From positions 160,001 to 224,000 of IMG/VR virus record IMGVR_UViG_3300028048_000039: 64,000 bases of DNA. One strand, 5' to 3'. Positions 32,429 to 49,529 of the stretch are shown here, piece by piece (positions within the stretch are counted from its first letter, which is position 1; every line of letters begins with the position of its first letter). Both the position numbers and the translations under genes were made by a program. The DNA comes from a virus (Duplodnaviria > Caudoviricetes). Under the pieces are notes generated by a model that saw only the letters and a list, made by a program, of their open reading frames with translations, ran no database searches and had not been told where the DNA came from.

Positions 32429-32437
32429 ATGTATTTA

Positions 32438-32604: not shown

Positions 32605-32985
32605 TTAAGCCTTAGCCTCAGCTTTCTCTCGCTTCACCTCAGCGGGTGTCTTGTGCCCAAAGAGAGCGTAGAACTGGTCGATGAGGTTGCCAATTGCCTG
32701 CCAGTCGTAGAGACCGTTGGAAGCTCCTCCGGCAACGAGACCACAGATTGCACCAAAGATTATATTCCCGGTCATGCTAGCGAACACTGCGAGACCACCA
32801 GTCATTGCGATGACCACGCCAGCGAGTACTGCGAGTACCCAGGAGATAAGATGCTTTGCCCAGGCAGCCTGAACATTGAAAGCTCCATTCACGAGACCGG
32901 TAAGTACTGTATTACCGGCGATGATTGATGGAACAATTATCATAAGCTGCTGAAGCAATAATGTTACTGTTGTAATAATTTCCAT
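32605..32985 (-). CDS. holin-like membrane protein
   Basis: 3 hydrophobic helices, GLVAGGASNGLYD, basic tail. Confidence 0.6.
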   Translation of the reverse strand: MEIITTVTLLLQQLMIIVPSIIAGNTVLTGLVNGAFNVQAAWAKHLISWVLAVLAGVVIAMTGGLAVFASMTGNIIFGAICGLVAGGASNGLYDWQAIGNLIDQFYALFGHKTPAEVKREKAEAKA

Positions 32986-33053
32986 AACACTTTCTTTTTA
33001 ATAAATTATTCTTCTTCTCATAAATATACAAATCTTTTCTTTATTTTCCAAAT

Positions 33054-33290
33054 CTAATCCACGTCATCTTTGTCTGGAATCTTCTTCCAGTAGCCGGCTT
33101 CACTCTTGTCAGGACGCCTATCAAATCCCTTAAAGTAGATGTAGATGACATATGCGAATGCGAACCCGCTGATAATCGTTAGCCAAGCTGTCGCTGCAGC
33201 CTTGAATACTATTCCTATTGGAATCAATGTTGCAATTGTTGCCAACGCCCTGATAATCTCCATTACTATTTTCTTAACACTTTCCTTCAT
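33054..33290 (-). CDS. small membrane protein
   Basis: two hydrophobic helices. Confidence 0.65.
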   Translation of the reverse strand: MKESVKKIVMEIIRALATIATLIPIGIVFKAAATAWLTIISGFAFAYVIYIYFKGFDRRPDKSEAGYWKKIPDKDDVD

Positions 33291-33317
33291 TTCCTTCTTT
33301 TCCTCCTATATTTTAAA

Positions 33318-33356
33318 AGCGGTATCATCCTCCGAGTGATTGGAAGACGACACCGC
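33318..33356 (-). terminator. intrinsic terminator closing the - strand island
   Basis: GCGGTGTCGTC/GATGATACCGC hairpin followed by TTTT. Confidence 0.55.
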
Positions 33357-33423
33357 CAAATTAACTATCTTCTTCACGAATCTCACTCCTCAAAACCTAT
33401 GTAAATAAACCTCTAGAACCTCA

Positions 33424-33777
33424 TTAGCAAATTCCCGTTTTTAAGTAATCACCATCTGGTGTATCAATTGTTATCTCATCGTATTCAAGGAAATGTTTTA
33501 CCTCGCCAATGTAATCAATGACATCCTCCTCCGTCAAGTCCTCTTGCTCATATTGAGTCGTGTTCTCCCAAAGTAGATTGATATACTCACCTTCTTCGTC
33601 TTTCTTAACCTCGTCAATGAATTCCTCTATCGGAATAATCATTCCAGTTCCTTCTACTATTCTCCAAGACTCATCCTCATATTCCCAGATGTAAGCGAGA
33701 AGATGAACAAACCTATTACCATCGTCATCCGTAAAGATGTTGTAGAGTTCGCACTCCATTGCTTTTTCTAATTTCAT
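33424..33777 (-). CDS. small acidic hypothetical protein
   Basis: SD variant AGGGAAGGT; sigma54-type site at 33833-33852. Confidence 0.8.
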   Translation of the reverse strand: MKLEKAMECELYNIFTDDDGNRFVHLLAYIWEYEDESWRIVEGTGMIIPIEEFIDEVKKDEEGEYINLLWENTTQYEQEDLTEEDVIDYIGEVKHFLEYDEITIDTPDGDYLKTGIC

Positions 33778-33871
33778 ATTGTACCTTCCCTTTTTAAGTT
33801 GTTAAACAATAACTGTGGACATTAATAGGTATAACAAATTCCGTGCCAAACTATCTATTTGATGATATTTT

Positions 33872-34066
33872 TTAGTTAGATAAAATACCATCTTTAATAT
33901 CAAGAAGAAGCGTAATAATTAAGCCAATAGGTGCAGTAAAGAAAAATCCCCACCAAAAAAACTTATGTTTTGTTTTCACTATTGTTTCAACAATGGAAAC
34001 AATAAAAATGTGTAGCACACCAAATAAGATAATCAGTTCAAATATACTCTGCTCCGTCATAGTCAT
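33872..34066 (-). CDS. small membrane protein
   Basis: hydrophobic; FFWWGFFFTAPIGLII. Confidence 0.65.
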   Translation of the reverse strand: MTMTEQSIFELIILFGVLHIFIVSIVETIVKTKHKFFWWGFFFTAPIGLIITLLLDIKDGILSN

Positions 34067-34072
34067 ATTTTT

Positions 34073-34927
34073 TTATTCATCCTCTTCACTCCACACTGCG
34101 GGTTGCTGCTCTGATTGAATCAGATATTTCTCTGCATACCGTATAATCTTTGCCCAATCATTTTCCTTGAAAGCCTTATCAATGTCTCCGCACTCTCCTT
34201 CAGATAAAGACATCTTTCCTTCTGGACGGTTTTCATCCAGATAGTTCATAAACCTGATTGCAAGGTCGTGCTTGGCGGCTTGATAGATTTTTTTACGAGG
34301 CTGTGGACGGAGTGATTTGAGGAAAGAATCAAGTTCTTCTTTTTCGTCAACACTTACTTCTCTTCCAGATGCAATATGTACTATTTCAAGAATGTGATTT
34401 AACTTATTTTTATCCTCTTCATTCCACTCATTCTTTGGCTGGGGTTTGAGGGATTTAAGCCAAGAAGATAATTTTTCTTTGTACTCATTTGACGGATGCA
34501 AATGGCCCGTACAACTTGGAATATCCATTGGAGGAAGTGTATCAGCGTATTTAATCATCTCAAGTATATCCATTAGTTTGTCTTCATCCTCTTCACTCCA
34601 CTCCGACTTCTGTTCTTTCTGCTTTTCAAGTTGCTCTTTGAGATAATAATTCTCTTCAATCAATTCACCAATTCTTGCATTAGATATTTGCAAGGCTTTC
34701 ATCAAATTACCTTGCTTTTCAAGCCAAACAAAAGCCTTATCCTTTTCTTCAGGTGACATATAACCACCAACCTGAATAATGCGAATAATTTTCTTTCTTA
34801 TCCTCTCATCCTCGCTTTCTTTAAGTTCTGGAATAAACAACTCACAAGCTTTCCGTAAGTCACTACCTGACGTACAATTTCTTTTAATGATTTCTATTGC
34901 CTCTTCTTTTGTCATAATTATTTCCAA
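34073..34927 (-). CDS. 'EWSEED' repeat protein, possibly C-terminally truncated
   Basis: paralog of 5544-7556; ends abruptly at WSEEDE. Confidence 0.75.
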   Translation of the reverse strand: MEIIMTKEEAIEIIKRNCTSGSDLRKACELFIPELKESEDERIRKKIIRIIQVGGYMSPEEKDKAFVWLEKQGNLMKALQISNARIGELIEENYYLKEQLEKQKEQKSEWSEEDEDKLMDILEMIKYADTLPPMDIPSCTGHLHPSNEYKEKLSSWLKSLKPQPKNEWNEEDKNKLNHILEIVHIASGREVSVDEKEELDSFLKSLRPQPRKKIYQAAKHDLAIRFMNYLDENRPEGKMSLSEGECGDIDKAFKENDWAKIIRYAEKYLIQSEQQPAVWSEEDE

Positions 34928-35099
34928 TTTATATTATTATCACTTTTCCTTGTAAAGTTTACAATGTCTTGCATTATTTCCTCTACTTTTTGCTTATCCC
35001 AGATGAAGACTGAGCCTATATAGTTATTAGGGTCTTCCATAATCTTATTCGTTTTTAGTTTAACAATACATTTTATCTATATACAAATATTGTGCAAAA

Positions 35100-35537
35100 C
35101 TATGCAAGTCCTGAAACAAATGTTGAAATTTCTTCAGCCTCATCCTCCGAGAATAACCTTTCAACCTTCTCACCATTCTTGGAGATTGCCTTCCAGACAG
35201 CGTTCACGTGGCGTTTTTCCTCATAGTAGTCATACCCGAACTCCTCAGCAAAGTCCTCAGCGGAGCTACAATTCTTCCAGTCGTAATATTCGCTGATGAT
35301 ACAATCCAACGCCCCGTTAATCATATCTTCAGTCTCGGTGATGCCTCTTTGATAGTTGTAGATGCTATCGTGGAATTTAAAGTCCTCAGCGACTTCTCCT
35401 CTCTTAATAGTTATTGTATAAGTGTAGTGAGTTGGGTCACCAGAATAACCCCTACCGAAAGCTCTCCTTTCCGTTCTCCTCTTATGTGCAGTTACCGAGA
35501 ACTCAATACCATTGTGCTTGTAATCAACTTTCATCAT
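35100..35537 (-). CDS. hypothetical protein (island gene)
   Basis: AGGAGGT SD; -24/-12 site at 35581. Confidence 0.85.
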   Translation of the reverse strand: MMKVDYKHNGIEFSVTAHKRRTERRAFGRGYSGDPTHYTYTITIKRGEVAEDFKFHDSIYNYQRGITETEDMINGALDCIISEYYDWKNCSSAEDFAEEFGYDYYEEKRHVNAVWKAISKNGEKVERLFSEDEAEEISTFVSGLA

Positions 35538-35608
35538 AATTGTACCTCCTTTCTTTAATTGGTTAAACTACTCTCTTGTATGCAAAAACCATTCCAGACT
35601 GATAAATC

Positions 35609-36133
35609 TTAGAGTTTATTTATCATCTTAAGCTGTAAATCCATACCTAACTCGGAGAAGTCAACGAACTTTTGTTCATTTCCAGAGTCATCGGTAATTA
35701 GGATGCTCATCTTCCTGCTCTTCTTATCAATGAAGACCCCTTCTACCTTAGTATAATTCCCGAAGATAATTTCATCTTCCAGACCCTTCACGAACCAGGC
35801 GTAAAAGTATTCATCGTGCTTTCCCTTCCTGATGACCAAGTCAATTATGTAATTAACAAGTGCATCATAACAATAAGTGAAAAGAAAGTCTTGCTCAGTC
35901 ATTACCTCAATATCTGGAAGGAGATGCCCATCGTCATCCAACCCACCATTCTCGCCAAGCTCATTAAGAACAGCCATTTCGTCACAAAAGATTACTGGCG
36001 ATTTATCGCCCCAGACCATTACTTGACCTTTATCAAATATGACATAGTTAAAATCCGCCTTATTGACATATTCCCCGAATGACATTCCCAAGTCAATGAG
36101 ATGTTTAATGAAATAATTCTTCTTAAAATTCAT
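35609..36133 (-). CDS. hypothetical protein
   Basis: ORF; GGGAGG in upstream gene end. Confidence 0.8.
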   Translation of the reverse strand: MNFKKNYFIKHLIDLGMSFGEYVNKADFNYVIFDKGQVMVWGDKSPVIFCDEMAVLNELGENGGLDDDGHLLPDIEVMTEQDFLFTYCYDALVNYIIDLVIRKGKHDEYFYAWFVKGLEDEIIFGNYTKVEGVFIDKKSRKMSILITDDSGNEQKFVDFSELGMDLQLKMINKL

Positions 36134-36136
36134 AGC

Positions 36137-36523
36137 CTATTCCTCCCAATTATAATAATTCAACCACGATATAATCTCGTCCATTACCTCTATGTCAAAT
36201 TTACTAACCCAAGTGGTCTCGTCAGATACATTAGTGAGTGAATGATGATACTCCTCATCAATCCAACATACATCATCATCAAAATCAACCTCAGCGACAT
36301 TGTACCCACAACAAGCATCAAAGTCCTGAAGAACCCAGTAGAGAACTCCGTCCTTGACATATATGCGTTTAATTCTCTCAGCGGTAAGTTCCTCATCATA
36401 GTACCTATAAACTATCTCGGTCTCTATGCTTCCACCATTTCTATTTACATACTCCTTGATGGTATCTACCATCTCCTTGTAGAGCTTCGTGTAAGCATTG
36501 TTAATCTTCGTCTCGTTAATCAT
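36137..36523 (-). CDS. acidic hypothetical protein
   Basis: strong SD. Confidence 0.85.
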   Translation of the reverse strand: MINETKINNAYTKLYKEMVDTIKEYVNRNGGSIETEIVYRYYDEELTAERIKRIYVKDGVLYWVLQDFDACCGYNVAEVDFDDDVCWIDEEYHHSLTNVSDETTWVSKFDIEVMDEIISWLNYYNWEE

Positions 36524-36631
36524 AATGTACCTCCTTTTTTCTTATTGTTAAACCTAAGAATACTGGGGGAGTGTCTTTTTCTCCCCCATATTCCGTTAAA
36601 CTAGTCCGCAACTGCGTACTACACCCCCATA

Positions 36632-37561
36632 TTAGACCATTAAAGTCTCTCTGTCAGCAACCTCGTCACCTACGAATGTGGAAACATAGACATTTCCCTT
36701 ATTGTCTTCCCATTCAATCCACTCCTTGTGGTCAGCGAGCTTATTAACCCTAATGCCAGTACCATACTTATTAGAGAGAGCTACAAGTCTCTTGAAAGTG
36801 ATGCACTCAGTCATTGTCATTGACTCATTATAATAATCTTTATTATAATAGGTCTCAGTAAGCTCGATGGTGAATTGATACTCTGGGTCAAGCATACCGA
36901 TAACATTACCATCATAGAACTGATAAGTCCTCGCCTCATTCAAGTCCATTGGGTAAGCACCATCGCAACACACCTGCCCCACGATGTTATCCTCATAGAC
37001 AACATACATAAAGACCTCGTCCATATCATCGGTCTCGTCATCGTACTTAATAACGCCTTGCCAGAGTGATACCTCTTTGCCGTTCACTACCACGCTATCA
37101 ACCTTCTCAAAGATGTCAAAGTCCACATTATCCCAACCACACACTTCGTTAAGGTCACGAACCATATCAAGCACCTTTTCCTTCTCATCCACGATTGGAA
37201 TAGGAGTAAAGTCATCGTCCATAATTCCCTCAGCAATGTTCTTAATCATCATCTCATAGATGTCATTGTGATAAGGACGAACCCAAGTACCATCTTCAGT
37301 ATAGACACCCTCGCCCGGAGCATAAGACAGCATCACCTCCAAGTGACCATCACGAACACGGAGAGCAAGAATGCGTCTCTCCTCATAGACTTCCTTCTCA
37401 CGAAGATAAACCACACTTGTAAATTCAGCGTACTCGCCATTTGGATTATCAACCCTGATAGCACCGCCCCACTCATTTACATAATTAACGATTGCATTAA
37501 CGAGATTGTCATAACCTCTTTCAACGATTGTCATTGCGTAATTGATAAGATTTTTTCCCAT
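36632..37561 (-). CDS. acidic hypothetical protein
   Basis: strong SD; -24/-12 site at 37613; N-terminus similar to 36137 and 42702 genes. Confidence 0.85.
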   Translation of the reverse strand: MGKNLINYAMTIVERGYDNLVNAIVNYVNEWGGAIRVDNPNGEYAEFTSVVYLREKEVYEERRILALRVRDGHLEVMLSYAPGEGVYTEDGTWVRPYHNDIYEMMIKNIAEGIMDDDFTPIPIVDEKEKVLDMVRDLNEVCGWDNVDFDIFEKVDSVVVNGKEVSLWQGVIKYDDETDDMDEVFMYVVYEDNIVGQVCCDGAYPMDLNEARTYQFYDGNVIGMLDPEYQFTIELTETYYNKDYYNESMTMTECITFKRLVALSNKYGTGIRVNKLADHKEWIEWEDNKGNVYVSTFVGDEVADRETLMV

Positions 37562-37635
37562 AATATACCTCCTTTTTTAAAATGTTAATAAATCAGTTTC
37601 CATAAATACTACTAACAAGTTCCGTGCCAAACTTC

Positions 37636-37812
37636 TTAGATTATGTAATTTTCTTCAAGTTTTTTGATAAATTCTCTTTCATCCATTTCATAGACCTCGT
37701 CTGCCGGAATGTCCAATGTTCCGATAACTCTTTCATTTTCAGCATCAATTACGATACTTCCACCATTTTCGTTACTTCTAAAGATGTAACCGCCTCTTTC
37801 AAATTCTTCCAT
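37636..37812 (-). CDS. small acidic protein (58 aa, not in ORF track)
   Basis: AGGAGGT SD then MEEFERGGYIF... Confidence 0.75.
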   Translation of the reverse strand: MEEFERGGYIFRSNENGGSIVIDAENERVIGTLDIPADEVYEMDEREFIKKLEENYII

Positions 37813-37871
37813 AATGTACCTCCTATTTTAAATTGTTCTCTATTATAATATACTCTCTTTTTCCGAAAATC

Positions 37872-38162
37872 TTACACTTCCAAGTCAAAAAGTTTATCTT
37901 TATCATCATATTGACGAATTAACTCTATGTCGTGAGTTTCTTCCATCCAGATTCTCCTCTTGTCATCAACATTGTCAAAAAGACCACAATCAGTACAAGC
38001 TTCTGCCAAGTTGTCAGTCGTTAATTTTCCATCACTTGAGAAGACCACGAAGGAATCTACTACTGGGTCTTCATCGGATTTAATCATCCCCAACCAAGTG
38101 TGAAAGGAGTTCTCATCCTTTCCTATGTAAATTATGTAAAAACGATTTTTCCAAATGCACAT
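37872..38162 (-). CDS. hypothetical protein
   Basis: SD; -24/-12 site at 38202. Confidence 0.8.
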   Translation of the reverse strand: MCIWKNRFYIIYIGKDENSFHTWLGMIKSDEDPVVDSFVVFSSDGKLTTDNLAEACTDCGLFDNVDDKRRIWMEETHDIELIRQYDDKDKLFDLEV

Positions 38163-38292
38163 ATCTCACCTCCTCTTTTAATTGTTCTACACTAATAGTC
38201 CTAACAAAGACCGTGCCAGAATTTAAAAAATAAGGGGGAAGAATGAAAAAAAATTCATCTTCCCCGCAAAAATCATAATTAGTCTTGGAGTA

Positions 38293-38463
38293 TTACTCGG
38301 CAACAGCGGTGGTATCAACGGCAACGCTATCAACAGCAACAGCGGTGGTGTCTTCAGCAACCTGCTCAAGACCCTGCTCCTCAACTACCTCTGCCTCATT
38401 GTTCTTGCAAGATACAAGTGCAAGGGCAAATACTACCAAGACTGCAAAAAGAATCTTCTTCAT
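38293..38463 (-). CDS. small surface lipoprotein (56 aa, not in ORF track)
   Basis: MKKILFAVLVVFALALVS-CKNNEAE...; lipobox; sigmaA-type promoter at ~38503; no SD. Confidence 0.8.
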   Translation of the reverse strand: MKKILFAVLVVFALALVSCKNNEAEVVEEQGLEQVAEDTTAVAVDSVAVDTTAVAE

Positions 38464-38668
38464 AGCAAACTTTATTTTTAATAGTTATTATTATTATTTC
38501 TGGCAAATATACAAAAATGTTTTCAAAAAAACAAATCTACCGGAAAAGTCTTACTCATCGTCCAGACTATTATTAAATAGTTCGTACAAGATATACAACA
38601 CAAAAAAAGTACATCCAACCGCACAAACTGATAACAATATCTTTAATAATAAGTAAAGCATCTTTCAT

Positions 38669-38974
38669 TTATTCTTTTATTATTTTTGGGTCATCATTAT
38701 AGTTCTCAAGCACCCACTCTAAAAGCAACTTTCTGTTTGTGGAATCAAGTTCACCATAAAACTTATTCATTCTCGCATATCCATTGTAATCGTATAGAAT
38801 ATAATTCCACTTCCCTATGATATGGTCAAGACTACAAGCCCACTTCACCTCCATAATAAAGGTTGGAAGATAGTCTTGCCTCTTCTCTCCATACATAGTC
38901 GTCCAGTCATAATAGTCGGACTTGTAATTCATACTGAAATAAAACCACTTGTTAATTGCGTTAATGTTGTTCAT
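38669..38974 (-). CDS. hypothetical protein
   Basis: SD; -24/-12 site at 39024. Confidence 0.8.
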   Translation of the reverse strand: MNNINAINKWFYFSMNYKSDYYDWTTMYGEKRQDYLPTFIMEVKWACSLDHIIGKWNYILYDYNGYARMNKFYGELDSTNRKLLLEWVLENYNDDPKIIKE

Positions 38975-39084
38975 AAATACCTCCTTCTTTAAAAAAGTAA
39001 AAATATGTTTTCTACCTTCTTACTATCAACTATCGTGCCAGAATGCTCCGGAATGCCGGTTTGGGTGAAAAAAGTTTTTCAATG

Positions 39085-39170
39085 CCTTTTTTTTTAAAAA
39101 AGGTGTGACGGAGACTATACTTTAGCTATTGATGTACTACTCTGACTCCGGTTTAACCCGAAACCAAACG
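39085..39170. repeat. GG(T/C)GTGACGGAGACTATA stem element
   Basis: copies at 27952, 39102, 42307; the 39.1 and 42.3 kb copies align over ~90 nt. Confidence 0.75.
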
Positions 39171-39300
39171 GCATCCATTTGTGCCGGTATTTCTACCTAT
39201 CTACTAACCCGGTGACCTTGCTCTCATTTCCATTGAGACCTCCTTCTTTAAAGTTAAACAATCAGTGAACACTAATAGTATATGCGAATATCGTGCCAGA

Positions 39301-39804
39301 CTACTCATTTCCGGAATCTTTTTTCCAAAATTTTTCCTCCTTGATGCCAACCCTATACCACCAAGACTCATCGTCAGCACCTATAACCCAATCAGTTTCC
39401 GGATTAACATCTGGAACATTCATCGTCTCTGCCATATCAGCAATAAGACTACAAGCACACTCAAAAGCTTCCTCTCCAGACTTGCAAGGATAAACCTCCG
39501 AGTAATAGTACCCATCAGTACCCATAGTTTCCGCAATTACGAAGGTAACCTTCTCATCAGTATCCTCATCCTCCTCTCTCTTGAGAACATTGAGAACATA
39601 ATCCCAAGCATCGTTGATTAAGTCCTCCAACTCATCTTCATAGTAATTCTCTGCATAAACTGCCAACGATACGCCATCTTTGCAGATTTCGCAAGTGTAA
39701 CTGCCATCGTGGCAGTAATCAGTAATCTTAATTTCCTTGCCTACTCTTTTAAGGTCTTTATTTGCTTCAGCAAGTGTATTCTCCCAATCGTTTCTTCTAT
39801 TCAT
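39301..39804 (-). CDS. acidic hypothetical protein
   Basis: start reset to ATG 39804, which follows an AGGAGGT SD. Confidence 0.85.
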   Translation of the reverse strand: MNRRNDWENTLAEANKDLKRVGKEIKITDYCHDGSYTCEICKDGVSLAVYAENYYEDELEDLINDAWDYVLNVLKREEDEDTDEKVTFVIAETMGTDGYYYSEVYPCKSGEEAFECACSLIADMAETMNVPDVNPETDWVIGADDESWWYRVGIKEEKFWKKDSGNE

Positions 39805-39820
39805 ATTATACCTCCTATTT

Positions 39821-40057
39821 TTAATCAAGATTAAAATTCTCCTTGCAAAACTCTTTGCCATCAAAGATTACTGAAAACATTTCGCTGGAATTTGCGAAAC
39901 AATAATAGTCCAAGTCCTCCAATGATAGACCATTTTCCTTTGCGATTTCCTCCAGACGCTTGTCAATGAAAGCGATTTGTTCCGGAGTATAATCGTCTTC
40001 AAAATCGTCAATAAGGCTTGCTCTAATGCTTTGGTAAGTAATTTTAGTATCTTCCAT
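39821..40057 (-). CDS. small acidic protein
   Basis: SD; -24/-12 site at 40111. Confidence 0.8.
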   Translation of the reverse strand: MEDTKITYQSIRASLIDDFEDDYTPEQIAFIDKRLEEIAKENGLSLEDLDYYCFANSSEMFSVIFDGKEFCKENFNLD

Positions 40058-40196
40058 ATTATACCTCCTTTTTTAAGTGTTAGACAATAAGTGTTTCCAT
40101 ATATACTAATAACAAGTTCCGTGCCAGACTTTCAAAAAATAAGGGGGAGAACAAAATTTTTTTCATCCTCCCCACAAACCAAAACACACAAACAAA

Positions 40197-40442
40197 CTAT
40201 GAAACCCTCTTCTTATAATATCTGTCAGCAGAATAAGTATCGCTTCCATCTTCCTCCGTAACCTCAGCATCCTCAAGGGCAAAACCCATCTCACTCATTA
40301 GGTAGTCACAATACAAGTGTTCGTGCTTCCAATCACCCCACTCAATCACAACAAGAACTCCGTCATCGCCATCTGGAACTACATCCTCAAAATAAAGGTC
40401 ACTCTTCCTTAACTTCTCCCTGACTTTATCAACATCTATCAT
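40197..40442 (-). CDS. small acidic protein
   Basis: SD; WGDWKHEH motif. Confidence 0.8.
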   Translation of the reverse strand: MIDVDKVREKLRKSDLYFEDVVPDGDDGVLVVIEWGDWKHEHLYCDYLMSEMGFALEDAEVTEEDGSDTYSADRYYKKRVS

Positions 40443-40528
40443 AGATACCTCCTTTTTTAATAGTTAATAATCTATGTCCGCAACTGCGTACTACACATCC
40501 CTTAATAAGCAACAATTGTTCCAGAATG

Positions 40529-40870
40529 TTAATCTTCGTCAGTTTCTACTCCAACTTCGTTGTAATCAAAGATGTCTTCCTTGTTTTCCTGCATCCATTC
40601 AGCGATGTCCACAAGTGCATCAGTGCCTATGTTAGCATTATCCCACCAATCGCTTCCATCACCACTACTGGCAAAGAAGATAAGTCTTCCATTCTTCTTT
40701 AGCTCAACACTATCAAGTGTGTATATGAAATAGTCATCTTCATTATCCCTAACGATTGGGCAATCATCCAAGTAGCTGACCTCAAGCGTGTCCTTACCGG
40801 ACTCCTTCATTATATTGGTGATTATCTCTATTGCTTCGTTCTCTATTTCTGCAAGTTTTTCTCTCATCAT
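40529..40870 (-). CDS. small acidic protein
   Basis: SD. Confidence 0.8.
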   Translation of the reverse strand: MMREKLAEIENEAIEIITNIMKESGKDTLEVSYLDDCPIVRDNEDDYFIYTLDSVELKKNGRLIFFASSGDGSDWWDNANIGTDALVDIAEWMQENKEDIFDYNEVGVETDED

Positions 40871-40950
40871 ATTGTACCTCCTTTTTTATAGTGTTAATAA
40901 AATCAGTTATCAGTTTCCGGAAGATGCCGGTGCTTATTCCGGCACTCTCG

Positions 40951-41214
40951 CTACATTTCCTCGTCCTCCGCAATCTCCTTCTCAATTCTCTTCAAGATGT
41001 TCATTGCTTCAGTCTTCGCCATTGCCCTGACCATTTGAGCAACATTTTTACCGAAAGCATCACTCCTGAACTCTTCTACCTCTTTGCTGTACTCTATTAT
41101 GAGCATCGCAAGTTTAAGGTCGTCAATGTTCTTGTTGCTGAACTCTGCAACCTTCTCATCTACTTTGTCCTTTATATCTGCCATAAGGACTCCGGCAACA
41201 TTTAATCCAATCAT
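40951..41214 (-). CDS. small helical protein
   Basis: SD; -24/-12 site at 41277. Confidence 0.8.
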   Translation of the reverse strand: MIGLNVAGVLMADIKDKVDEKVAEFSNKNIDDLKLAMLIIEYSKEVEEFRSDAFGKNVAQMVRAMAKTEAMNILKRIEKEIAEDEEM

Positions 41215-41316
41215 ATTGTACCTCCTTTTTTAAGTTGTTAGTAAAATCAGTTAATTCGTGTGGACATTAACATACTTGCGAATATCGTGCCAAACTCTTC
41301 ATTTCTGGAAAAAATT

Positions 41317-41577
41317 TTACATTTCTCTCTCAAAAATTTTGCAGATAGTGTGATTTTCACAATAATAGCCGTCCTGATAAATTTCAAAACCTCCGTTCTT
41401 GTACTCATCAATTTTGATTTCATCCGCATCAAAATTCTCTACATAAGTTGTTGTTTCATTTTCCAATGTGGAAGCAACTTCTGCAAGTGCTTCTTCCTTT
41501 GTCTTGAAGACATCAACCTTTAAATTTTCGTCAGTTATATCCCAGACCGATTGTGTTACTACTACAAATACTTTCAT
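41317..41577 (-). CDS. small acidic protein
   Basis: SD. Confidence 0.8.
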   Translation of the reverse strand: MKVFVVVTQSVWDITDENLKVDVFKTKEEALAEVASTLENETTTYVENFDADEIKIDEYKNGGFEIYQDGYYCENHTICKIFEREM

Positions 41578-41598
41578 ATTATACCTCCTTTTTAAGTG

Positions 41599-42120
41599 TT
41601 AATCTACTACTCCATTACCATAATAGAGATTGAAACTTCTTCCTTCTGAAATAAGACATCTCCAAAGATAATAATCTTCTTCCATTTGTTCATCCTGAAA
41701 TTTATGATAACTACCATTACAATAGCGTAACCTATTATTTTCCCTATACATTTTCTCGCACACCTCATCAAATGTACCTTCAAGTTCATAAGTCCTGATA
41801 GTATCCTCCTTATGCGGATAGACGTGATGCCTTACAACGCCATCTTTGTCGGCATATTCCCATACATCGTGTTCATAGTGGCTTTCACAGACTACTTTTA
41901 TTTTTTCGTTCCACTTCTTAACTATGCGAATAATGTTATCAATTTGCTTACAAGCAAGGTCAATAGCATAGTCATCGCTTCTTAAATAAGTCCAACGACT
42001 TTTTTCATACTTGAGTTCCTTTGTAACATAACCAACAAAGTCCTTTTCGTGATACAACGGCATTTTGTCAATGTGATAGAACGCCATCAAATACTTTAAT
42101 TCTTGTTTTGTGTAACTCAT
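41599..42120 (-). CDS. hypothetical protein
   Basis: SD; LRYCNG and YYGNGVVD motifs. Confidence 0.85.
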   Translation of the reverse strand: MSYTKQELKYLMAFYHIDKMPLYHEKDFVGYVTKELKYEKSRWTYLRSDDYAIDLACKQIDNIIRIVKKWNEKIKVVCESHYEHDVWEYADKDGVVRHHVYPHKEDTIRTYELEGTFDEVCEKMYRENNRLRYCNGSYHKFQDEQMEEDYYLWRCLISEGRSFNLYYGNGVVD

Positions 42121-42433
42121 AATGTACCTCCTTTTTTAGATGTTAGACAATCGTGTTCATTAAGATATACCTGAGAACTCCGGAAATCTTACAAGGGAAG
42201 GTTTTTTTCAACCCTCCACTCTTCTATATTCAAATTCTATGCCACACTTTCAAAATTCCGGCATTTCCGGCAAAAAAATTTATCAATCTCCTTTTTTTTA
42301 AAAAAAGGCGTGACGGAGACTATACTTCAGCGATTTACTTACTGCTTGGTCTCCGGTTTAACCCAGAAACAAAATCCGGCACACTAATACTATTGCAAAT
42401 AGTGTGCCAGACTACTCATTTCCGGAAATTTTT

Positions 42434-42700
42434 TTAATAACACTTCACAACTCTCTCCGGCATTACCTTCTTGGGAAGCTTCCCCTCCAGCGTTGCCCAC
42501 TTCACATCGTGGTCTTCAACATATTCCGGAATAACCCAATCAGTAAATATACCATCGCAGTTTGCTTTCTTCCCATACTTAATCTCGGCAATCTTCGCCT
42601 TGACTATCGGTTTCGTGTCAATCCTCATTGAAAGGGTAAAGCAAACATAATCGCCCTCTTTCAACTCAATACCAAACTTGTCACATACCTTCCTGTCCAT
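42434..42700 (-). CDS. hypothetical protein (KOW/SH3-like 'DKFGIELKEGDYV')
   Basis: ORF coupled to 42702 gene. Confidence 0.75.
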   Translation of the reverse strand: MDRKVCDKFGIELKEGDYVCFTLSMRIDTKPIVKAKIAEIKYGKKANCDGIFTDWVIPEYVEDHDVKWATLEGKLPKKVMPERVVKCY

Positions 42701-42701
42701 A

Positions 42702-43367
42702 TTATTTCTCCTCCAATGCTTTAAGAATACTCTTTAAGTCCTCAAGTGAAAAGTCAGCAAGTTCGTGCCAATTCTTCTCATTTGTCATAATGTCATCATC
42801 TCCGTAGATGTGGAAATAGATAATGCCTTCTCCCTCCATTTGAAACGCAAGGTCAACCTCCGGTAACTCAAGACTGCTCAAACCACAAGCACCCTCTTCG
42901 CCAATAACGGCAGAAAGTTTCATTGGATGCTCCTCGTCAGTATCCATCAGTATAGCAGAAATCTTTTTCCTGACATCCTCCCACTCTTCAAGGCCATCGT
43001 ACTCATCAATGCTATCAAGGATGGAGATGATAGTATCTGCCTTGTAAGTGAGACCATCGCTACCATCCAAGCAATACCAATTATCCTCGTCAGCAATCAT
43101 TTCCTTTTTCGTTGGGGTTTCAAGATAAGTCCTCATAATAGGAAGGAAATAGCAAAGTATGTCATTATCTACAATGCGAAGGGCATAGCAATAATACTCC
43201 TCCAATCTATCTTCCTCATTGATTGCATAACCATAGATTGTATCAAAGTTATGTTCAGGACTTGTATTCAGGAAACCTCCGTTCCTGATGACTACTTCCT
43301 TAATCGCAACGTAAGCATCGTTAAGGGATTTAAAAATTTCCTTTCTCGTCTTTTCAATTTTGTTCAT
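42702..43367 (-). CDS. acidic hypothetical protein
   Basis: SD; -24/-12 site at 43407. Confidence 0.85.
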   Translation of the reverse strand: MNKIEKTRKEIFKSLNDAYVAIKEVVIRNGGFLNTSPEHNFDTIYGYAINEEDRLEEYYCYALRIVDNDILCYFLPIMRTYLETPTKKEMIADEDNWYCLDGSDGLTYKADTIISILDSIDEYDGLEEWEDVRKKISAILMDTDEEHPMKLSAVIGEEGACGLSSLELPEVDLAFQMEGEGIIYFHIYGDDDIMTNEKNWHELADFSLEDLKSILKALEEK

Positions 43368-43508
43368 AATGTACCTCCTTTTTTAATGATTATCTACTCT
43401 ACTACTAACAAATATCGTTCCAAAAACAACAAAAAAGTGGGGAAGACCAAAAATTTTTTTAATCTCCCCACAATTCGTCTAACACTGGAAACCTCCGGAA
43501 ACCATTGA

Positions 43509-43862
43509 TTACTTGACTATCACTTCATAATTCCTTACCAAGTAGTCAGCAAACCTCTTCATTGTGTCAGTATCAAACTCGTCAATGTCAGTTTCAACCT
43601 CTTCCTCGTCGCCCAATGTGATATCTCCATCCTCATAATAGATGATGTCAAGTTTCCTCCTCTCATTGTACTCGTTCCCCTCGCAATCCTCAACTTCAAC
43701 ATCATACCGGAAACTACCACCCAAGTCAGTCGCATCAATGGTAAAGATACCTTCTGCATCTTCCTCAATGCCCAATGCACTACGGAGCAATTCAATCTCT
43801 CTCTTAATGAAGCCTTTAAGGTCTTCTCTCGCCTTTGTGATAATCGTGTCAGTGTAATTCAT
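43509..43862 (-). CDS. highly acidic small protein
   Basis: SD. Confidence 0.85.
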   Translation of the reverse strand: MNYTDTIITKAREDLKGFIKREIELLRSALGIEEDAEGIFTIDATDLGGSFRYDVEVEDCEGNEYNERRKLDIIYYEDGDITLGDEEEVETDIDEFDTDTMKRFADYLVRNYEVIVK

Positions 43863-43880
43863 AATGTACCTCCTTTCTCT

Positions 43881-44306
43881 TTAATCGTTAGTAATATCGT
43901 AGCAACCAATAATGCCATCCACATCCCCATAGAAGAAACGAACATAAAAAGTCCTCCCCTTGTAAGTGATGTCATAGCACATCTTCATAATGTACTCGTT
44001 AGTACCATCATCGCAACCATCGTCTATTCCGCAATCAACATACACACACTTGTCAATAGCATCCTTTGCCATAAGACTATCAATACAAGCGGAAATCCCT
44101 CTATCGTCATACACATAGTCATCAAGGATGTCCATCAACTCTCTCTTCACTTTCTCGCCATCATCCTCATCTTTCTCGCCATTGAGCAAGTCAAGACACT
44201 CGCCCAACTTCTCAAGGACATCTTCCTCTGCATCAGTAAGACCTTCCTTACTAATAAGGTCGTGATAGATACCGCTAATTCTTTTCAATAAGTCTTTTTT
44301 TATCAT
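43881..44306 (-). CDS. highly acidic small protein
   Basis: SD; -24/-12 site at 44358. Confidence 0.85.
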   Translation of the reverse strand: MIKKDLLKRISGIYHDLISKEGLTDAEEDVLEKLGECLDLLNGEKDEDDGEKVKRELMDILDDYVYDDRGISACIDSLMAKDAIDKCVYVDCGIDDGCDDGTNEYIMKMCYDITYKGRTFYVRFFYGDVDGIIGCYDITND

Positions 44307-44434
44307 AATGTACCTCCTTTTTTAGATGTTAGTAATCAAGTGAACTACTTTTTAGTATGCAAATACTTCGCCAAACTTGGTATTTCCGGAAACTTTTTTG
44401 CAAAATATACCGCAATTGCGTACTACTGAACTCG

Positions 44435-44716
44435 TTAGAAGAAATGTATCTCCGCAAAGTCGTTGTCCTTGTCCATCTCCTCCAAGATAGTCTTGCAGAC
44501 CTCCCCGAACTCTTCGTCCTCAAGATGACCTTCCAAGAACTCTCTTCCTAACTCCATATAACCTTCATCCTCCGAGAGCCAATAATCTCCGTTGCTGTCA
44601 TCTCCCACTTCTTTAACCCAAGAAACGAACTCGTCACAATCTCCGTAACTTGATACCGGAACTTTGTCGCTATACTCTACCTTGTAAGTCTTGCAGATGT
44701 GTAAACCATAACTCAT
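44435..44716 (-). CDS. highly acidic small protein
   Basis: SD. Confidence 0.8.
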   Translation of the reverse strand: MSYGLHICKTYKVEYSDKVPVSSYGDCDEFVSWVKEVGDDSNGDYWLSEDEGYMELGREFLEGHLEDEEFGEVCKTILEEMDKDNDFAEIHFF

Positions 44717-45013
44717 ATTATACCTCCTTTTTTAATAGTGTTGAACAATCAAGTGAACTCTCTCTCTTCATTTATACTCCGGAACTCCGGAAACCTTACA
44801 TCAACCTTTAAGTTTTTTCATCTTTGTTGTAACTCTTCTTCATATAGACCTCCTTCTTTAAAGTGTTAGACAAATAAGTGTGAACTATGCCGCAACTGCG
44901 TACTACTGATAACCTCTTAACAAATATCGTTCCGGAATTTAAAATCTCCCAAACTTTTTTTCGTTCCACCAATGATATATACTCATCCTCTCCGGAAATC
45001 TTGCATCATACCT

Positions 45014-45535
45014 TCAGGTTTCTTCATCTTTCTCATCATCATATGGAGTTTCCTCGTTGATGGAAACCTTCGCAGCTTCCTCTGCTTCCTCCTCATTATT
45101 ATAGATAAAGTCACTCTCATCGTACAAGCATCCATCCTCTCCATACACCTCATACCCATACTTCTTCTCATTGTTAGTGATAGTGATGCCGCACTCTTTG
45201 TACTCGGTGGTCTTTACCACGTTCTTGGAGTCATAGATAGTTTCATCATCTCCCTCATACGTAGTGTAAAGATATCCATACATCCCATCAATGTAGCTCT
45301 CAATGGTCACAAGCGTATCGCCTTTCTTCCATACCTGGAAGTTGATGTCATCGGTATCAATTGGGATGAAATGCTCCTTCTCAAAGTATTCCTTAATCTT
45401 CTCATAGCTTTCCAGTTCATAGTAAGCGTGAAGTGCCTCCTGGTTATAGCTGCATCTACTATCAAGACCACCACCTGCTGGTTCAGACTCTTCGGAAATA
45501 TAAGGTTTTCCATACCTATCAACAAATCTACTCAT
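45014..45535 (-). CDS. highly acidic hypothetical protein
   Basis: SD; consensus -24/-12 site at 45590. Confidence 0.85.
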   Translation of the reverse strand: MSRFVDRYGKPYISEESEPAGGGLDSRCSYNQEALHAYYELESYEKIKEYFEKEHFIPIDTDDINFQVWKKGDTLVTIESYIDGMYGYLYTTYEGDDETIYDSKNVVKTTEYKECGITITNNEKKYGYEVYGEDGCLYDESDFIYNNEEEAEEAAKVSINEETPYDDEKDEET

Positions 45536-45626
45536 ATGATACCTCCTTTTTTAATGGGTTAAACAATTAAGTGTGGACAATAATATACTTGCAAAATCCG
45601 TGCCAAACTGATAAAAAAAGGGAAGA

Positions 45627-46751
45627 TTAAGTTTTCATCTTCCCCCCTTTCTGCCCATTACACTTTCTACAAATCATCTGCAAATTCTCAAGAATTGTCT
45701 TTCCACCTCGCCACCAAGGAATTATGTGGTCTCCCTCCATCTCTTCAAAGGTATGATGCTCTCCGCATATTGGACAAACCCCCTCTTGTTTCTCATAAGC
45801 CGTTCTCTTGTCCACATTGCTAAATGTCCTCTTGGAAAGCTTCCTTGCAATGTCCTCGCTCTCATTGGAAAGCACGTACTCATAAATGCCCTTCTTGTCA
45901 GTAACTTCCTCGTTCTCCATCAATGAGTGAATTTTCTCCTCCAAGGTCTCGCAATCATACTCATTGCCCTTATAAGTGTCATAGAGCTTTCCCCAGTTTA
46001 AGCCGCACATCTCCTTTCTATAATACTTTCCGGTATTAAACGTCCCCTCAATCCAAGAAATCACATTGTTGAAGTAATCCCAAAGCTCACTGGCATCCTC
46101 ATCGTGCTGATGCTCTGCCATATAGTCAGCAATCTTTCCATCACTTATCCAGGAAAGCGCAGTCTCAAGGTACTCTTGCCTAATCGGACTTCCCTTTACA
46201 AACCTATTACCAATCTTATAGGCCACACAATTGGTCTTGCTGAACTTCTTCTTTGCATCGGTAAGCCACTTTCCGGTATAGTTGATATTAAGCAGCTCCT
46301 GGTCAGTAAGCTTTTCCCCGGCAATGTTAATCGTCCTAAACCAATCCAACCTCTCCTTGTCATTGCCATTGCAGACGTAGATATCCACTGGATAAGATAG
46401 AATTCTCTCCTGCTCAACGTCAGTCAAGTTATGGAAGTACATAGGAACACCCTCAACCTCAACCGAGAAGTCCCCGGAAACGTACTGGCAAAAGGAAATA
46501 GTCCTCTGCTGTCCATCAAGGACTTCATAAGTGCCATCCTCATTTTCCGCCCAGTACATAACGTTAAGCGGAAACCCCTTAAGGATAGTTTCAATCACTG
46601 CTGCCCTTTGCTTGTCCTTATAAACGAACTCCCTTTGATATGCCGGACGGATGTTAAGCTTTCCACTGAAGCCGGAAACTCCACCCTCGGCATTGTCAAC
46701 GTAGTCCTTGCTAATCTCCTTGATTGTGTAATTCTTGTGTTCTATTCTCAT
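45627..46751 (-). CDS. DUF262 + HNH endonuclease (GmrSD-like N-terminus)
   Basis: RPAYQREFVY, LDGQQR, F..IN..G..L; C-terminal CPIC..GDHIIPW..GG.T..NLQ..C..CN. Confidence 0.9.
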   Translation of the reverse strand: MRIEHKNYTIKEISKDYVDNAEGGVSGFSGKLNIRPAYQREFVYKDKQRAAVIETILKGFPLNVMYWAENEDGTYEVLDGQQRTISFCQYVSGDFSVEVEGVPMYFHNLTDVEQERILSYPVDIYVCNGNDKERLDWFRTINIAGEKLTDQELLNINYTGKWLTDAKKKFSKTNCVAYKIGNRFVKGSPIRQEYLETALSWISDGKIADYMAEHQHDEDASELWDYFNNVISWIEGTFNTGKYYRKEMCGLNWGKLYDTYKGNEYDCETLEEKIHSLMENEEVTDKKGIYEYVLSNESEDIARKLSKRTFSNVDKRTAYEKQEGVCPICGEHHTFEEMEGDHIIPWWRGGKTILENLQMICRKCNGQKGGKMKT

Positions 46752-46958
46752 AATGTACCTCCTACTCTTATTGGGTTAATACTTTATCGTCTATTGACGT
46801 GTATGCAAATTATGTGCCAAACTTTACTTTCTGCAGAAAATTTTAGTCTAATAGTACACAATTTGAAATAGTAGGGTTAGATAGGTATGTAGAAGATAAC
46901 CCTCATTATGGACATAGATTTACTATTAGCGGAAAAGAAACTTACGCAAGAATTTTAA

Positions 46959-47960
46959 TTAAGCGGAAAGTTTCTTAATAAGTATTCTTGCATAGACACC
47001 TTTATTATTTACATAGAACTTTACTCTGCCATCGTTTCCATTTATAAGTCCTTCTCCTCTCGCACCACTCATAATTCCCACTATTTCAAATTGTGTAGAA
47101 ATGCTGTTAATCTCTATATGAATAGTACCATCACTCCACAAATATTTCAACCCCGTAATCGGAATACCGATAACTCCGTTATAGTCCATAGGAAATTTCT
47201 CCATCCTACCACACTCAATAGCATCGTAATTATCGTACTTTGGAAAATCTTTCTCGTTGTACTTCTTGTAAGTGTCAAGTGTTTCTCTTTTATTATCATT
47301 TGAAACATTTGTGTACCAACAAATAGAATTTACTTGCTTGTATATTCCATCTGCCTTTGTAATATACCTCTCATTTTCAATAGGATAATTTGCGGGCATT
47401 TTGAAGTATGGCATTTTGCCTGTGAATAAAGTTCTGCCAAGCCAAAGTTGTCCGTTCTTTATAAGTGGAAATATCTCTTTGTAGGTAATTGCGTTGTTAT
47501 TCCCCAAGATAATAAATTTCTTGTTGTACTTCATAAGTTGAGCAACATACTCCCTGAACAAGCTAAATGGTGGGTTGGTAACTACCACGTCAGCTTCCTT
47601 AAGATAAGCAATGCACTCCTCACTCCTGAAGTCCCCATTACCATTAAGATAGGTAACCTTTACCTCTTCATCATCCACTCTCCTATTGCCGTTCTTGTCC
47701 CCCTCATATACCAATACCACACCACGTCCATCTGCCTTATATCCAGTGCTGATGAGCTTCTTCAACCCAAGGTGCTCAAAGTTAAGGGAGAAGTATTTAA
47801 AGAAGTTAGACTCCCTGGCATCATCACAATTACAATAAACCACCTTCCCCCTGAAGAAGTCCTTGTAATGCACCATCTCTTTCTCAATATCTGACAATTG
47901 AGTGTAGAATTCGTCTTGCTTTGCTGTCTTTGCCTTGTGTAAATTAGAGTTCTTTGCCAT
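46959..47960 (-). CDS. EcoRI-family adenine-specific DNA methyltransferase
   Basis: DEFYT..DIE.E, VYCNCDD, GDFRS.EC, VVTNPPFSLFREY, YARILI. Confidence 0.9.
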   Translation of the reverse strand: MAKNSNLHKAKTAKQDEFYTQLSDIEKEMVHYKDFFRGKVVYCNCDDARESNFFKYFSLNFEHLGLKKLISTGYKADGRGVVLVYEGDKNGNRRVDDEEVKVTYLNGNGDFRSEECIAYLKEADVVVTNPPFSLFREYVAQLMKYNKKFIILGNNNAITYKEIFPLIKNGQLWLGRTLFTGKMPYFKMPANYPIENERYITKADGIYKQVNSICWYTNVSNDNKRETLDTYKKYNEKDFPKYDNYDAIECGRMEKFPMDYNGVIGIPITGLKYLWSDGTIHIEINSISTQFEIVGIMSGARGEGLINGNDGRVKFYVNNKGVYARILIKKLSA

Positions 47961-48208
47961 AATGTACCTCCTTTTTTAAAGTGTTAAACATAATGATACC
48001 TCACAAAAACCATACCGCACTCATCAAATATATAGAAAAAAATTGAAAAAAGCAAAAAAATCAACCCCTCAATCCCACCAGGAAACCGGAAACCCGGTTA
48101 ATAATAGCCGCATTTGCGTACTACACCAGGTTTCGGAAAGCGGCAGTCCCAACTGACAAATTGTCCACTCTTTCAGCCAGGAACCGCCGGAAACCTGGAT
48201 GCTACTCG

Positions 48209-48586
48209 TTACTTGATGGCGGCAATTGCCTTATAAACCTCTTCCACCGCCTTGTTGACCTGCTCAATTGTCTCATAGACCTTCGCAATGACCTCGTCAG
48301 CTACCTCGTCCCTCTCGTCTTCCTCCTCTTCCTCGTCATCATAGCCAACCTCATAGTCATACCAGTCCACGTAGCCAAGCCACTTCGCAATCTCGTCCTT
48401 TTCGTACCACAAGATGTCGTTCACTTCCTCTTCAGTGAGCGCTTCTACGCCCTCTCTATCCTCGATGTACTCCTCCACCTCATCGCAGTCGCCCTTTTCC
48501 TTGAGGACTTCAAGTGTGTCAAGTCCGCCACCCCAAGCCGGGAATTCATTGAGGGACACTTCCTCATACTTCTTAATTTCTACCAT
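48209..48586 (-). CDS. very acidic hypothetical protein (first gene of the island)
   Basis: SD; FPAWGGG..VNDILW; DDEEEEEDE. Confidence 0.85.
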   Translation of the reverse strand: MVEIKKYEEVSLNEFPAWGGGLDTLEVLKEKGDCDEVEEYIEDREGVEALTEEEVNDILWYEKDEIAKWLGYVDWYDYEVGYDDEEEEEDERDEVADEVIAKVYETIEQVNKAVEEVYKAIAAIK

Positions 48587-49529
48587 AATTACCTCCTTCT
48601 TTAAAATTAGACAATCTAGTTAACTATGTACACTTGCATGCATGCATAAGTACTTTCAAAAATAAGGGGATGAACCATGGACTGCTAACTACCAAACCCC
48701 ACAATTCATCCCCACACACTTACATGGTAACAAAAACCATGCCAAACACTAAAAAAGGATATATAAACCTCAAAAAAAAAATAATGCATGTTCATGAAGC
48801 TATTTCCTGGACTACCATGGGAGCTAGTTACTCTCTCACTTCATCTACTTCGCAAGCCAACATTGGCCCCTAGCTCCCGGTGTCACTCCCCTCTCGCTTT
48901 CTCCTCCTTTAACACTAAAAATGGAAAATACATGAACACACTAATACTCTTGCAAAGACCATGCCAAACTTTACGGAAAACCCATGATAGATAAAAAATA
49001 TTTACAATTGGGGAGCTATACCTATATTATATATAGAGAGGGAAGCTCATGTACATGCATGATAGGCCTAGAAACCATGGGAGCTTCCGGGTATAGACCC
49101 AGGGATAGCCGGGGTACCCGGTGGTGTAGTCCCCCTCCCATAGTCCCCCTGGCACTTTTGAAGGAATATGGGGGCACAGTTGCTTCCGACAAATCTCCCT
49201 ATTTTTTTCGTCATTTTCCATTAGGGGGGTACCCTTTCCCATCAAAAGGTACTACTTTTCCAAAAATTTTTCCACCTAAAATTTCCATCATTTCCCAAAC
49301 CTCACTTTCCTCTCAAAAACCATCGTCACCCAAATTTCATCTTTCCGAGAAAAAAAAAATCCCTAATGGATTACACTTCAAAAGCCATTTTCCATTAGGG
49401 GGGGGGGTCTAAAAATTGAGTAGGTACTACTTTCGGAATAAATTTTTCCCAGAATTTTTTTCATCTTTTCCAACAAAATATATCTTGACTTTCACCCACA
49501 AAATATGTAAATTATTAGAAAAAGACAAT

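Follow-up and report, generated by a model that had tools for sequence, protein, structure and literature searches.

The DNA considered here is a 64,000-nt stretch, which we call the window; it covers bases 160001-224000 of the 344,580-bp IMG/VR virus record IMGVR_UViG_3300028048_000039 (CheckV completeness 93%), the genome of an uncultured jumbo phage of roughly 345 kb. Positions marked “window” count along this stretch and those marked “genome” along the whole record. Around window 28186-48966 lies a block of minus-strand genes, the island, and the spaces between these genes carry a dense array of sites that resemble the -24/-12 promoters of the sigma-54 (RpoN) type; we refer to promoters of this type as class 2. 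The genes of the island, in window coordinates, are as follows.

28623..29579, minus strand: DUF3310 / nucleotide-kinase-like gene, co-transcribed with sigma-1
29619..30470, minus strand: sigma-1, a sigma70-family protein of 283 amino acids (aa) with regions 2 and 4
31078..48586, minus strand: block of ~30 small genes, most with AAAAAGGAGGTA Shine-Dalgarno (SD) leaders
45627-46751, minus strand: GmrSD_N + HNH nuclease gene (Pfam)
46959-47960, minus strand: EcoRI-type methylase gene (Pfam), with its own host-type promoter at ~48032

Read from the low-numbered end, the class 2 promoters of the window and the open reading frames (ORFs) or RNAs that follow them are these.

28186..28201, minus strand: TGGCATGGTTTTTGTA; no ORF after it, a hairpin-rich transcript only
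30601..30616, minus strand: proximal member of a tandem pair 5′ of sigma-1
30670..30685, minus strand: distal member of the tandem pair 5′ of sigma-1, a perfect TGGCACGGGATTTGCA
33833..33848, minus strand: 5′ of a 117-aa ORF
35581..35596, minus strand: TGGAAT variant, 5′ of a 145-aa ORF
37614..37629, minus strand: 5′ of a 309-aa ORF
38203..38218, minus strand: 5′ of a 96-aa ORF
39025..39040, minus strand: 5′ of a 101-aa ORF
39283..39298, minus strand: TTCGCA variant as in host groES, 5′ of an SD-led 9-codon mini-ORF
40111..40126, minus strand: 5′ of a 78-aa ORF
40508..40523, minus strand: TGGAAC variant, 5′ of an 81-aa ORF
41277..41292, minus strand: 5′ of an 87-aa ORF
42229..42244, minus strand: followed by a long leader with a 5′ hairpin, up to a 173-aa ORF
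42394..42409, minus strand: promoter of an ~85-nt RNA whose closing stem begins at motif position 26 and which ends in a U-run
43407..43422, minus strand: TGGAAC variant, 5′ of a 221-aa ORF
45590..45605, minus strand: 5′ of a 173-aa ORF
46804..46819, minus strand: 5′ of the GmrSD_N + HNH nuclease gene
48729..48744, minus strand: promoter of a ~62-nt hairpin RNA with a terminator (z = -5.1)
48951..48966, minus strand: upstream end of the island

Both the number of these sites and their arrangement set them apart from expectation. With up to two mismatches allowed, the pattern TGGCAC-N5-TTGC matches the window 54 times, as against 31 ± 5.5 in shuffled sequence, and with at most one mismatch it does so at 14 sites where 1.8 ± 1.4 are expected (maximum 5; 40 Markov-1 simulations); these 14 are confined to the minus strand of the interval 30616-48966. 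A looser pattern combined with context yields the 19 sites listed above, from 28186 to 48966, every one of them on the minus strand and every one intergenic. When the scan is extended to all 344,580 bp of the record, just one class 2 site is added, on the plus strand at genome position 102604, which brings the total to 20 sites per 345 kb with 19 of them inside 21 kb. A preliminary description of this DNA had reported a co-oriented intergenic array with fixed spacing, and the 19 minus-strand sites confirm it; the seven examples it named lie on the minus strand and are positioned correctly to within 1 nt, while the beginning of the array has to be moved from 33780 to 28186 to take in an extra site 3′ of the sigma gene.

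Aligned without gaps, the 20 sites give the consensus AGTyTGGCAYGg-N3-tTTGyW, in which TGG, A5, T12 and G14 are invariant. The GG and the G of the GC doublet are present in 20/20 sites, always separated by the same 10-nt spacing, and the C of the doublet varies (C in 10 sites, T in 7, A in 3). In sequence, in spacing and in the G at -20 the motif fits the universal sigma-54 consensus TGGCACG-N4-TTGCW, and its conserved block reaches 3-4 nt 5′ of TGG (A-G-T-y), past the usual extent of that consensus. Most of the information content falls in a single block, from -3 to +17; outside it there is little, save for a conserved R-T-R 11-13 nt 3′ of the G(C). The closing stems of two promoter-proximal RNAs begin at motif positions 26-28, and these stems together with the R-T-R mark the place where a sigma-54 start would fall. 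Thirteen to 14 of the sites lie 45-70 nt 5′ of an SD-led start codon, close to the ~40-70 nt originally proposed, and what follows the others is a short structured RNA or a further promoter; each site is itself preceded by the terminator of the previous gene or by a small palindrome.

Class 2 is one of three promoter classes that the phage has, the others being a host housekeeping type and a late class with the motif CTATTTAT. The phage carries ~45 promoters of the Bacteroidota housekeeping type, TTTG-N~19-TATATTTG(CA), that is, TTTG...TAnnTTTG. The late motif is present in 78 copies where base composition would give ~39, about 65 of them in promoter-like non-coding positions, and it stands 20-50 nt 5′ of start codons without an SD. 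Examples of both classes are given here together with the second of the two sigma70-family proteins that the phage encodes.

Window 4239, 14012 and 20353, plus strand: host-type promoters of the form TTTG-N~19-(t)tttGTATATTTGCA
Window 31053, 38511 and 48032, minus strand: host-type promoters of the same form
Window 21760, 24383 and 25917, plus strand: late motif CTATTTAT upstream of SD-less start codons
Genome 69159-69878, plus strand: sigma-2, a sigma70-family protein of 239 aa

Over regions 1.2-2, sigma-2 has 50% identity to the primary sigma (286-287 aa) found in Segatella, Bacteroides and Leyella; its region 3 is deleted, its residues in regions 2.4 and 4.2 resemble those of the host protein, and its gene belongs to an operon behind a host-type promoter at ~genome 66350. 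In our best reading, promoters of the host housekeeping type drive the early genes, including that of sigma-2. The array had first been placed in the early class; because ~45 housekeeping-type promoters exist and one of them precedes the sigma-2 operon, the island looks instead like a separate promoter class, probably a delayed one.

It is the TTTG...TATATTTG promoters, the leaders without an SD and the 50% identity of sigma-2 that mark the host as a member of the Bacteroidota, most likely one of the gut or rumen Bacteroidales. The phage ugd gene, for which Bacteroidales and Clostridia tie at 64-69% identity, indicates the habitat and not the phylum. A host among the Firmicutes, first suggested by the strong SD sequences, was rejected because these are limited to the island, the rest of the phage having Bacteroidota promoters and leaders. 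Likewise, a TTGACA-17-TATATT match 5′ of sigma-1, which the preliminary description had taken for a sigmaA promoter, is probably a chance occurrence because the host is one of the Bacteroidota and the match is not of the host type. The housekeeping-type promoters are enough by themselves to identify the phylum, and promoter scanning alone can thus reveal the host phylum of uncultured phages.

The class 2 motif is also found in front of chaperone genes of such hosts. Among the upstream regions of groES, grpE, dnaK and htpG from three Bacteroidales genomes (Segatella, Bacteroides and Leyella; 12 regions), 11 contain the motif on the gene strand, just 5′ of the gene, for example as TGGCACGCTTTTCGTA at groES, TGGCACACTATTTGTT at htpG and TGGCACACGGTTTGTT at dnaK, and a further site, TGGCACATAATTTGTT, lies upstream of host clpB. 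Phage and host sites share the core TGGCAC(G/A)-N4-TT(T/C)G(T/C)W with equal spacing, and a T at the position of the canonical -12 C is common in both. Individual phage sites agree with host htpG and clpB sites at 14/16 bases, the site at 46804..46819 doing so with the site upstream of clpB in B. cellulolyticus. A weight matrix built from the 20 phage sites only gives 13-20 bits for the best site in each of nine heat-shock loci, against a 99.99th percentile of 7.7 bits over 472,496 host positions; this best site lies upstream of the gene in eight of the nine loci and inside the gene at B. cellulolyticus dnaK.

The same type of promoter has been mapped experimentally elsewhere in the phylum. 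In Flavobacterium psychrophilum, mapping of 5′ ends revealed a motif, SM4, at groES-groEL, lon, dnaK, grpE-dnaJ, htpG and clpB (Guerin et al. 2021, PMC9723704), which the authors attributed to sigma-54, and mutagenesis at one operon showed that the conserved bases matter (PMC9723704). An enrichment of predicted sigma-54 promoters at chaperone genes is reported for Bacteroidia and Flavobacteriia (PMC12316311). The phage sites share the core, the spacing and the tolerance of T at the -12 C with this proteostasis regulon and differ from it in what they precede: there, chaperone genes; in the phage, ORFans, a nuclease, small RNAs and a sigma gene. The numbers differ too, since each host genome of 3-4 Mb holds 9-14 matches to the pattern TGGCACRNNNNTYGYW and the phage has twenty sites, mostly in 21 kb.

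The apparatus for reading such promoters is present in the candidate hosts. Sigma54_DBD was found in 3/3 Bacteroidales genomes tested, and the S. copri RpoN has AID, CBD and DBD as well as the RpoN box ARRTVAKYR. Each candidate host genome encodes 3-5 enhancer-binding proteins, sensor-less ones among them. S. copri and Leyella stercorea have one sensor-less activator each, PspF-like in architecture (AAA+ domain from residue 15 onwards, C-terminal HTH_8 domain), and proteins of this kind are candidates for the heat-shock regulator.

L154:715-2046, minus strand: sensor-less activator of S. copri
L152:1459-2682, plus strand: sensor-less activator of Leyella stercorea

Class 2 sites are not peculiar to this phage. 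Homologs of sigma-1 with their flanks were collected from Logan and IMG/VR contigs (49, 36, 33, 31, 31 and 28% identity) and provide six further phage contig sets, representing at least five distinct phages; the IMG/VR relatives were retrieved by an alignment query, a single-sequence query of IMG/VR with sigma-1 being without matches. The class 2 motif is present in all six sets, its consensus unmoved at TTGGCAYGr-N3-TTGYA, and four distinct IMG/VR relatives have 10-25 co-oriented sites per whole record as against 0-1 for the reversed pattern. In the relative G008, a complete phage of 361 kb, 17 class 2 sites occupy a 20-kb block adjoining its own sigma-1 gene, and a copy of sigma-2 is 55% identical to that described above. 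The late motif CTATTTAT is also identical in G008 (66 copies), so its co-variation with sigma-1 does not discriminate between the readings considered below.

Our best reading is that class 2 consists of copies of the host sigma-54 proteostasis promoter type, and that it drives ~30 fast-evolving small genes, the HNH nuclease, two or three short RNAs and sigma-1. On this reading, to which we give a probability of about 0.72, the class 2 sites would be promoters read by the host sigma-54 holoenzyme, and two of them would drive the phage sigma gene, whose product probably turns on the late genes. The -24/-12 assignment made at the outset is in this respect supported, both by the motif at Bacteroidales chaperone genes and by the class defined by mapped transcription start sites (TSS) in another member of the Bacteroidota. 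Canonical sigma-54 cannot start transcription without an ATPase activator, and a plausible sequence of events is as follows: infection, or the protein-folding stress that results from it, would activate a host enhancer-binding ATPase, for which the sensor-less, PspF-like protein is a candidate; this ATPase would open the sigma-54 closed complexes at the class 2 promoters; and we infer that the sigma-1 made from these promoters may then direct the late CTATTTAT class.

Several observations weigh against this reading, and the first of them concern the activator. Genes for RpoN and for AAA+ proteins with a GAFTGA motif, which the preliminary description had advised seeking in the genome, were searched for: neither RpoN nor an enhancer-binding protein was found in the phage or in the records of five IMG/VR relatives, and profile and regular-expression searches of the phage gave nothing credible for Sigma54_DBD, Sigma54_CBD, an RpoN box or a GAFTGA activator. 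Among the sources of activation that had been put forward, a hijacked activator and gating by host state are still live. The only hits to PF00158 in the phage and these relatives fall on ClpB-like Hsp100 proteins; those in the phage were considered as an activator and rejected, as they belong to a ClpB/ClpC-like Hsp100 with GYVGYEEGG. This protein has two rings and is encoded at genome 237057-239636 on the minus strand, in an open frame listed at 918 aa; the version in relatives has 850 aa. The presence of an Hsp100 gene is of note beside the apparent use of a host proteostasis promoter type. No multisubunit (Rpb2-type) polymerase was detected in the phage; a model for T7-type polymerases had no match anywhere, and that search is hence uninformative.

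The surroundings of the promoters weigh in the same direction. At host chaperone promoters, TGTCAG boxes lie upstream together with a GTGCCA inverted repeat; in G008, TGTCA boxes accompany 7/17 promoters, and 21/33 of its double boxes are inside its island. The phage promoters differ from the host regulon in lacking both elements: within 200 nt 5′ of them there are no TGTCA-type boxes and no shared element, only TTTCCGGAAATGA at 5-7 promoters. Without enhancer boxes, the sources of activation left would be an activator acting from solution, an unknown phage factor and a distant site. Furthermore, the TTTG(CA) block of the motif coincides with the 3′ half of TAnnTTTG, the -7 box of host housekeeping promoters, which makes the second block less independent as evidence, and the host has been placed from promoters, lack of SD and sigma-2, above the species level only.

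The final point of this kind is that the phage has two sigma70-family factors to which no promoters are assigned, an early sigma-2 and a class 2-driven sigma-1, in a layout like that of SPO1. In SPO1, the cascade runs from the host sigma to gp28 and then to gp33/34. Class 2 might accordingly be a set of “middle” promoters, with host core polymerase directed to them by a sigma70-family factor of the phage: the host sigma would first have sigma-2 made, then sigma-2 or a self-activating sigma-1 would read TGGCAC+TTTG, and sigma-1 would read the late class, the likeness to sigma-54 being convergence or deliberate mimicry. The positions of the two genes suit such a cascade, sigma-2 lying behind a host-type promoter and sigma-1 behind two tandem class 2 promoters (a layout repeated in the 49%-identical relative), as does the fact that in every array-bearing relative a sigma-1 homolog adjoins the array. 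Also in its favour are the identity of TTTG(CA) with half of the host -7 box and the host-like residues of sigma-2 in regions 2.4 and 4.2, and since no activator is needed, the missing enhancer-binding protein and boxes would be accounted for. The likeness to SPO1 extends to the distinct late motif; the difference is that the intermediate class here is RpoN-like and not a phage-specific -35/-10 pair.

Other evidence is hard to fit to a phage sigma. The identical motif stands at the chaperone genes of bacteria that have no phage sigma, and TSS data assign it to sigma-54 there (PMC9723704). A gap of 4-5 bp separates the conserved blocks, where the -35/-10 or -33/-7 elements of sigma70-family promoters are separated by 16-21 bp, and nothing is conserved at the -33/-35 distance, which together make a misfit with a sigma70-family promoter. 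Across the relatives the motif stays constant while the sigma-1 homologs (28-49% identical) differ at the base-contact positions of region 2.4. Also, class 2 is the sole promoter type that could start a self-activating loop of sigma-1, which has no promoter of another class to set the loop going. On balance we regard reading by a phage sigma, the main rival, as unlikely; it is because of the missing activator and boxes, the TTTG(CA) overlap and the two phage sigmas that the sigma-54 reading is held at the probability given above and this alternative retains a share.

The conserved A-G-T-y 5′ of TGG and the TTTG block invite a further comparison, with the sigma appropriation of T4 MotA/AsiA; on this view an unrecognized phage DNA-binding protein would bind AGTyTGGCACG and the host primary sigma or sigma-2 would use TTTG as a partial -7 box. 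The many ORFans of the island could hide such a factor, and a 305-aa protein beside sigma-1 is common to G008. We consider this very unlikely: the core motif is found at host chaperone genes without any phage, the TA of TAnnTTTG is missing (positions 7-8 are G/A and G/A), and apart from sigma-1, which is the sole island protein kept in all relatives, no island protein is shared across all of them.

It is also worth considering whether the sites bind sigma-54, or another protein, mainly for a purpose other than transcription, as a titration sink that blunts the heat-shock response or as operators or insulators. Sigma-54 is generally known to sit in closed complexes that are stable even when no activator is present, each replicating phage genome brings twenty strong sites as against ~9-14 in a whole host genome, and enhancers are not present. 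Against such a role, every site is co-oriented with its gene at a fixed distance and lies 3′ of the previous terminator with a conserved start region and a leader; moreover, most island genes have no visible host-type promoter or any other besides class 2 and would go untranscribed without these sites. We rate this the least probable of the explanations discussed here.

The leaders of the island set it apart as well. The long SD AAAAAGGAGGTA belongs to island genes (window 28000-49000, minus strand), whereas outside the island 201/225 ORFs of at least 150 aa lack any SD and 24/225 have an SD-like word, 2 of these being a full AGGAGG. In the relatives, the leaders behind class 2 promoters read aacaattaaaattt..ATG, with no SD. 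A tentative extension of the host sigma-54 reading, which we think unlikely to hold, is that the island constitutes a two-layer expression channel orthogonal to the host, composed of enhancer-less sigma-54 promoters and of strong SD leaders in a phylum whose ribosomes do not as a rule use SD sequences. The first layer would be opened by an unrecognizable phage factor or by the host heat-shock activator once the phage had set it off, and the ClpB-like Hsp100 of the phage, or a burst of unfolded protein, is a conceivable trigger. If this were so, ~30 accessory genes and the late-gene sigma would be switched as a unit, apart from the bulk expression of host and phage.

It is informative to compare the array with known systems in which sigma-54 or its activators meet phage biology. 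In E. coli, PspF of the phage-shock system is a sensor-less sigma-54 activator that is switched on by stress of a kind that phage infection can cause. The activators of the candidate hosts share its architecture, with the AAA+ domain from residue 15 and a C-terminal HTH_8; the difference is that psp is a host defence, whereas here phage genes would benefit, the link between activator and promoter being hypothetical. To our knowledge, published phage transcription programmes rely on the housekeeping sigma of the host, on sigma70-family factors encoded by the phage or on phage polymerases. A literature search for arrays of sigma-54 promoters in phages returned no published description of an array, and only the one promoter of Pseudomonas phage YuA, a single -24/-12 promoter assigned to the host sigma-54 (Ceyssens et al. 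2008, as cited in PMC10914365). As that citation presents it, the YuA promoter is one among sigma-70 and phage-specific ones, whereas the present array has 20 members and is kept across a phage family.

If the host sigma-54 reading is true, a conserved sigma-54 type promoter class exists in a family of giant Bacteroidota phages, beyond the isolated case of YuA, and the accessory block, and perhaps through sigma-1 the late genes, would be tied to the host's protein-stress alarm. Since a sigma-54 promoter gives no transcript before an ATPase has opened it, such a switch would be tight. One can also imagine two practical uses: the phage would give experimental access to the heat-shock regulator of the Bacteroidota, about which little is known, and its compact promoters of ~20 bp might serve as stress-gated parts for Bacteroides genetics.

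The proteins of the island are for the most part without relatives in the collections searched. Only four of 28 island ORFs fall into a Pfam family, namely the sigma, the DUF3310 gene, the nuclease and the methylase; among six island ORFs searched against PHROGs, only the sigma and the DUF3310 gene had matches, the four largest ORFs of the 31078..48586 block having none; and a 12-kb megablast against GenBank phages gave no match. Several small features accompany these genes and their promoters, in window coordinates.

42300-42384, minus strand: ~85-nt RNA from a class 2 promoter, with a GUGUG/CACGC closing stem and then a U-run
48660-48719, minus strand: RNA from a class 2 promoter, a ~62-nt hairpin and U-run with a z-score of -5.1
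39204-39235, minus strand: strong SD and 9-codon mini-ORF (MEMRARSPG, stop) behind the promoter at 39298, with no normal gene
32342-32428, minus strand: tRNA-Leu, anticodon TAA, among the class 2-driven island genes
30755-31058, minus strand: RNA unit behind a host-type promoter, situated between the sigma-1 tandem promoters and the island genes and ending in a strong terminator at 30763-30790

The palindromic box TTTCCGGAAATGA (variants TTTCCAGGAAA and TTTCTGCAGAAA) ends ~10 nt 5′ of TGGCAC at 5-7/20 promoters.

39299-39320, minus strand: box of the TTTCCGGAAATGA type
42410-42430, minus strand: box of the same type
41293-41312, minus strand: box of the same type
30686-30706, minus strand: box of the same type
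46820-46842, minus strand: box of the same type

In G008 and in a second relative, G009, some promoters lie inside a 9-bp inverted repeat, AGCGTGCCA-N15-TGGCACGCT, followed by TTTTT.

L102:1610-1660 and 2533-2580: inverted-repeat promoters of G008/G009
L103:533-580: inverted-repeat promoter of the same kind
L128:1360-1412: inverted-repeat promoter of the same kind

This repeat could represent an overlap of terminator and promoter or an operator. The groES promoter of S. copri has the same arrangement, GAGCGTGCCA...TGGCACGCT.

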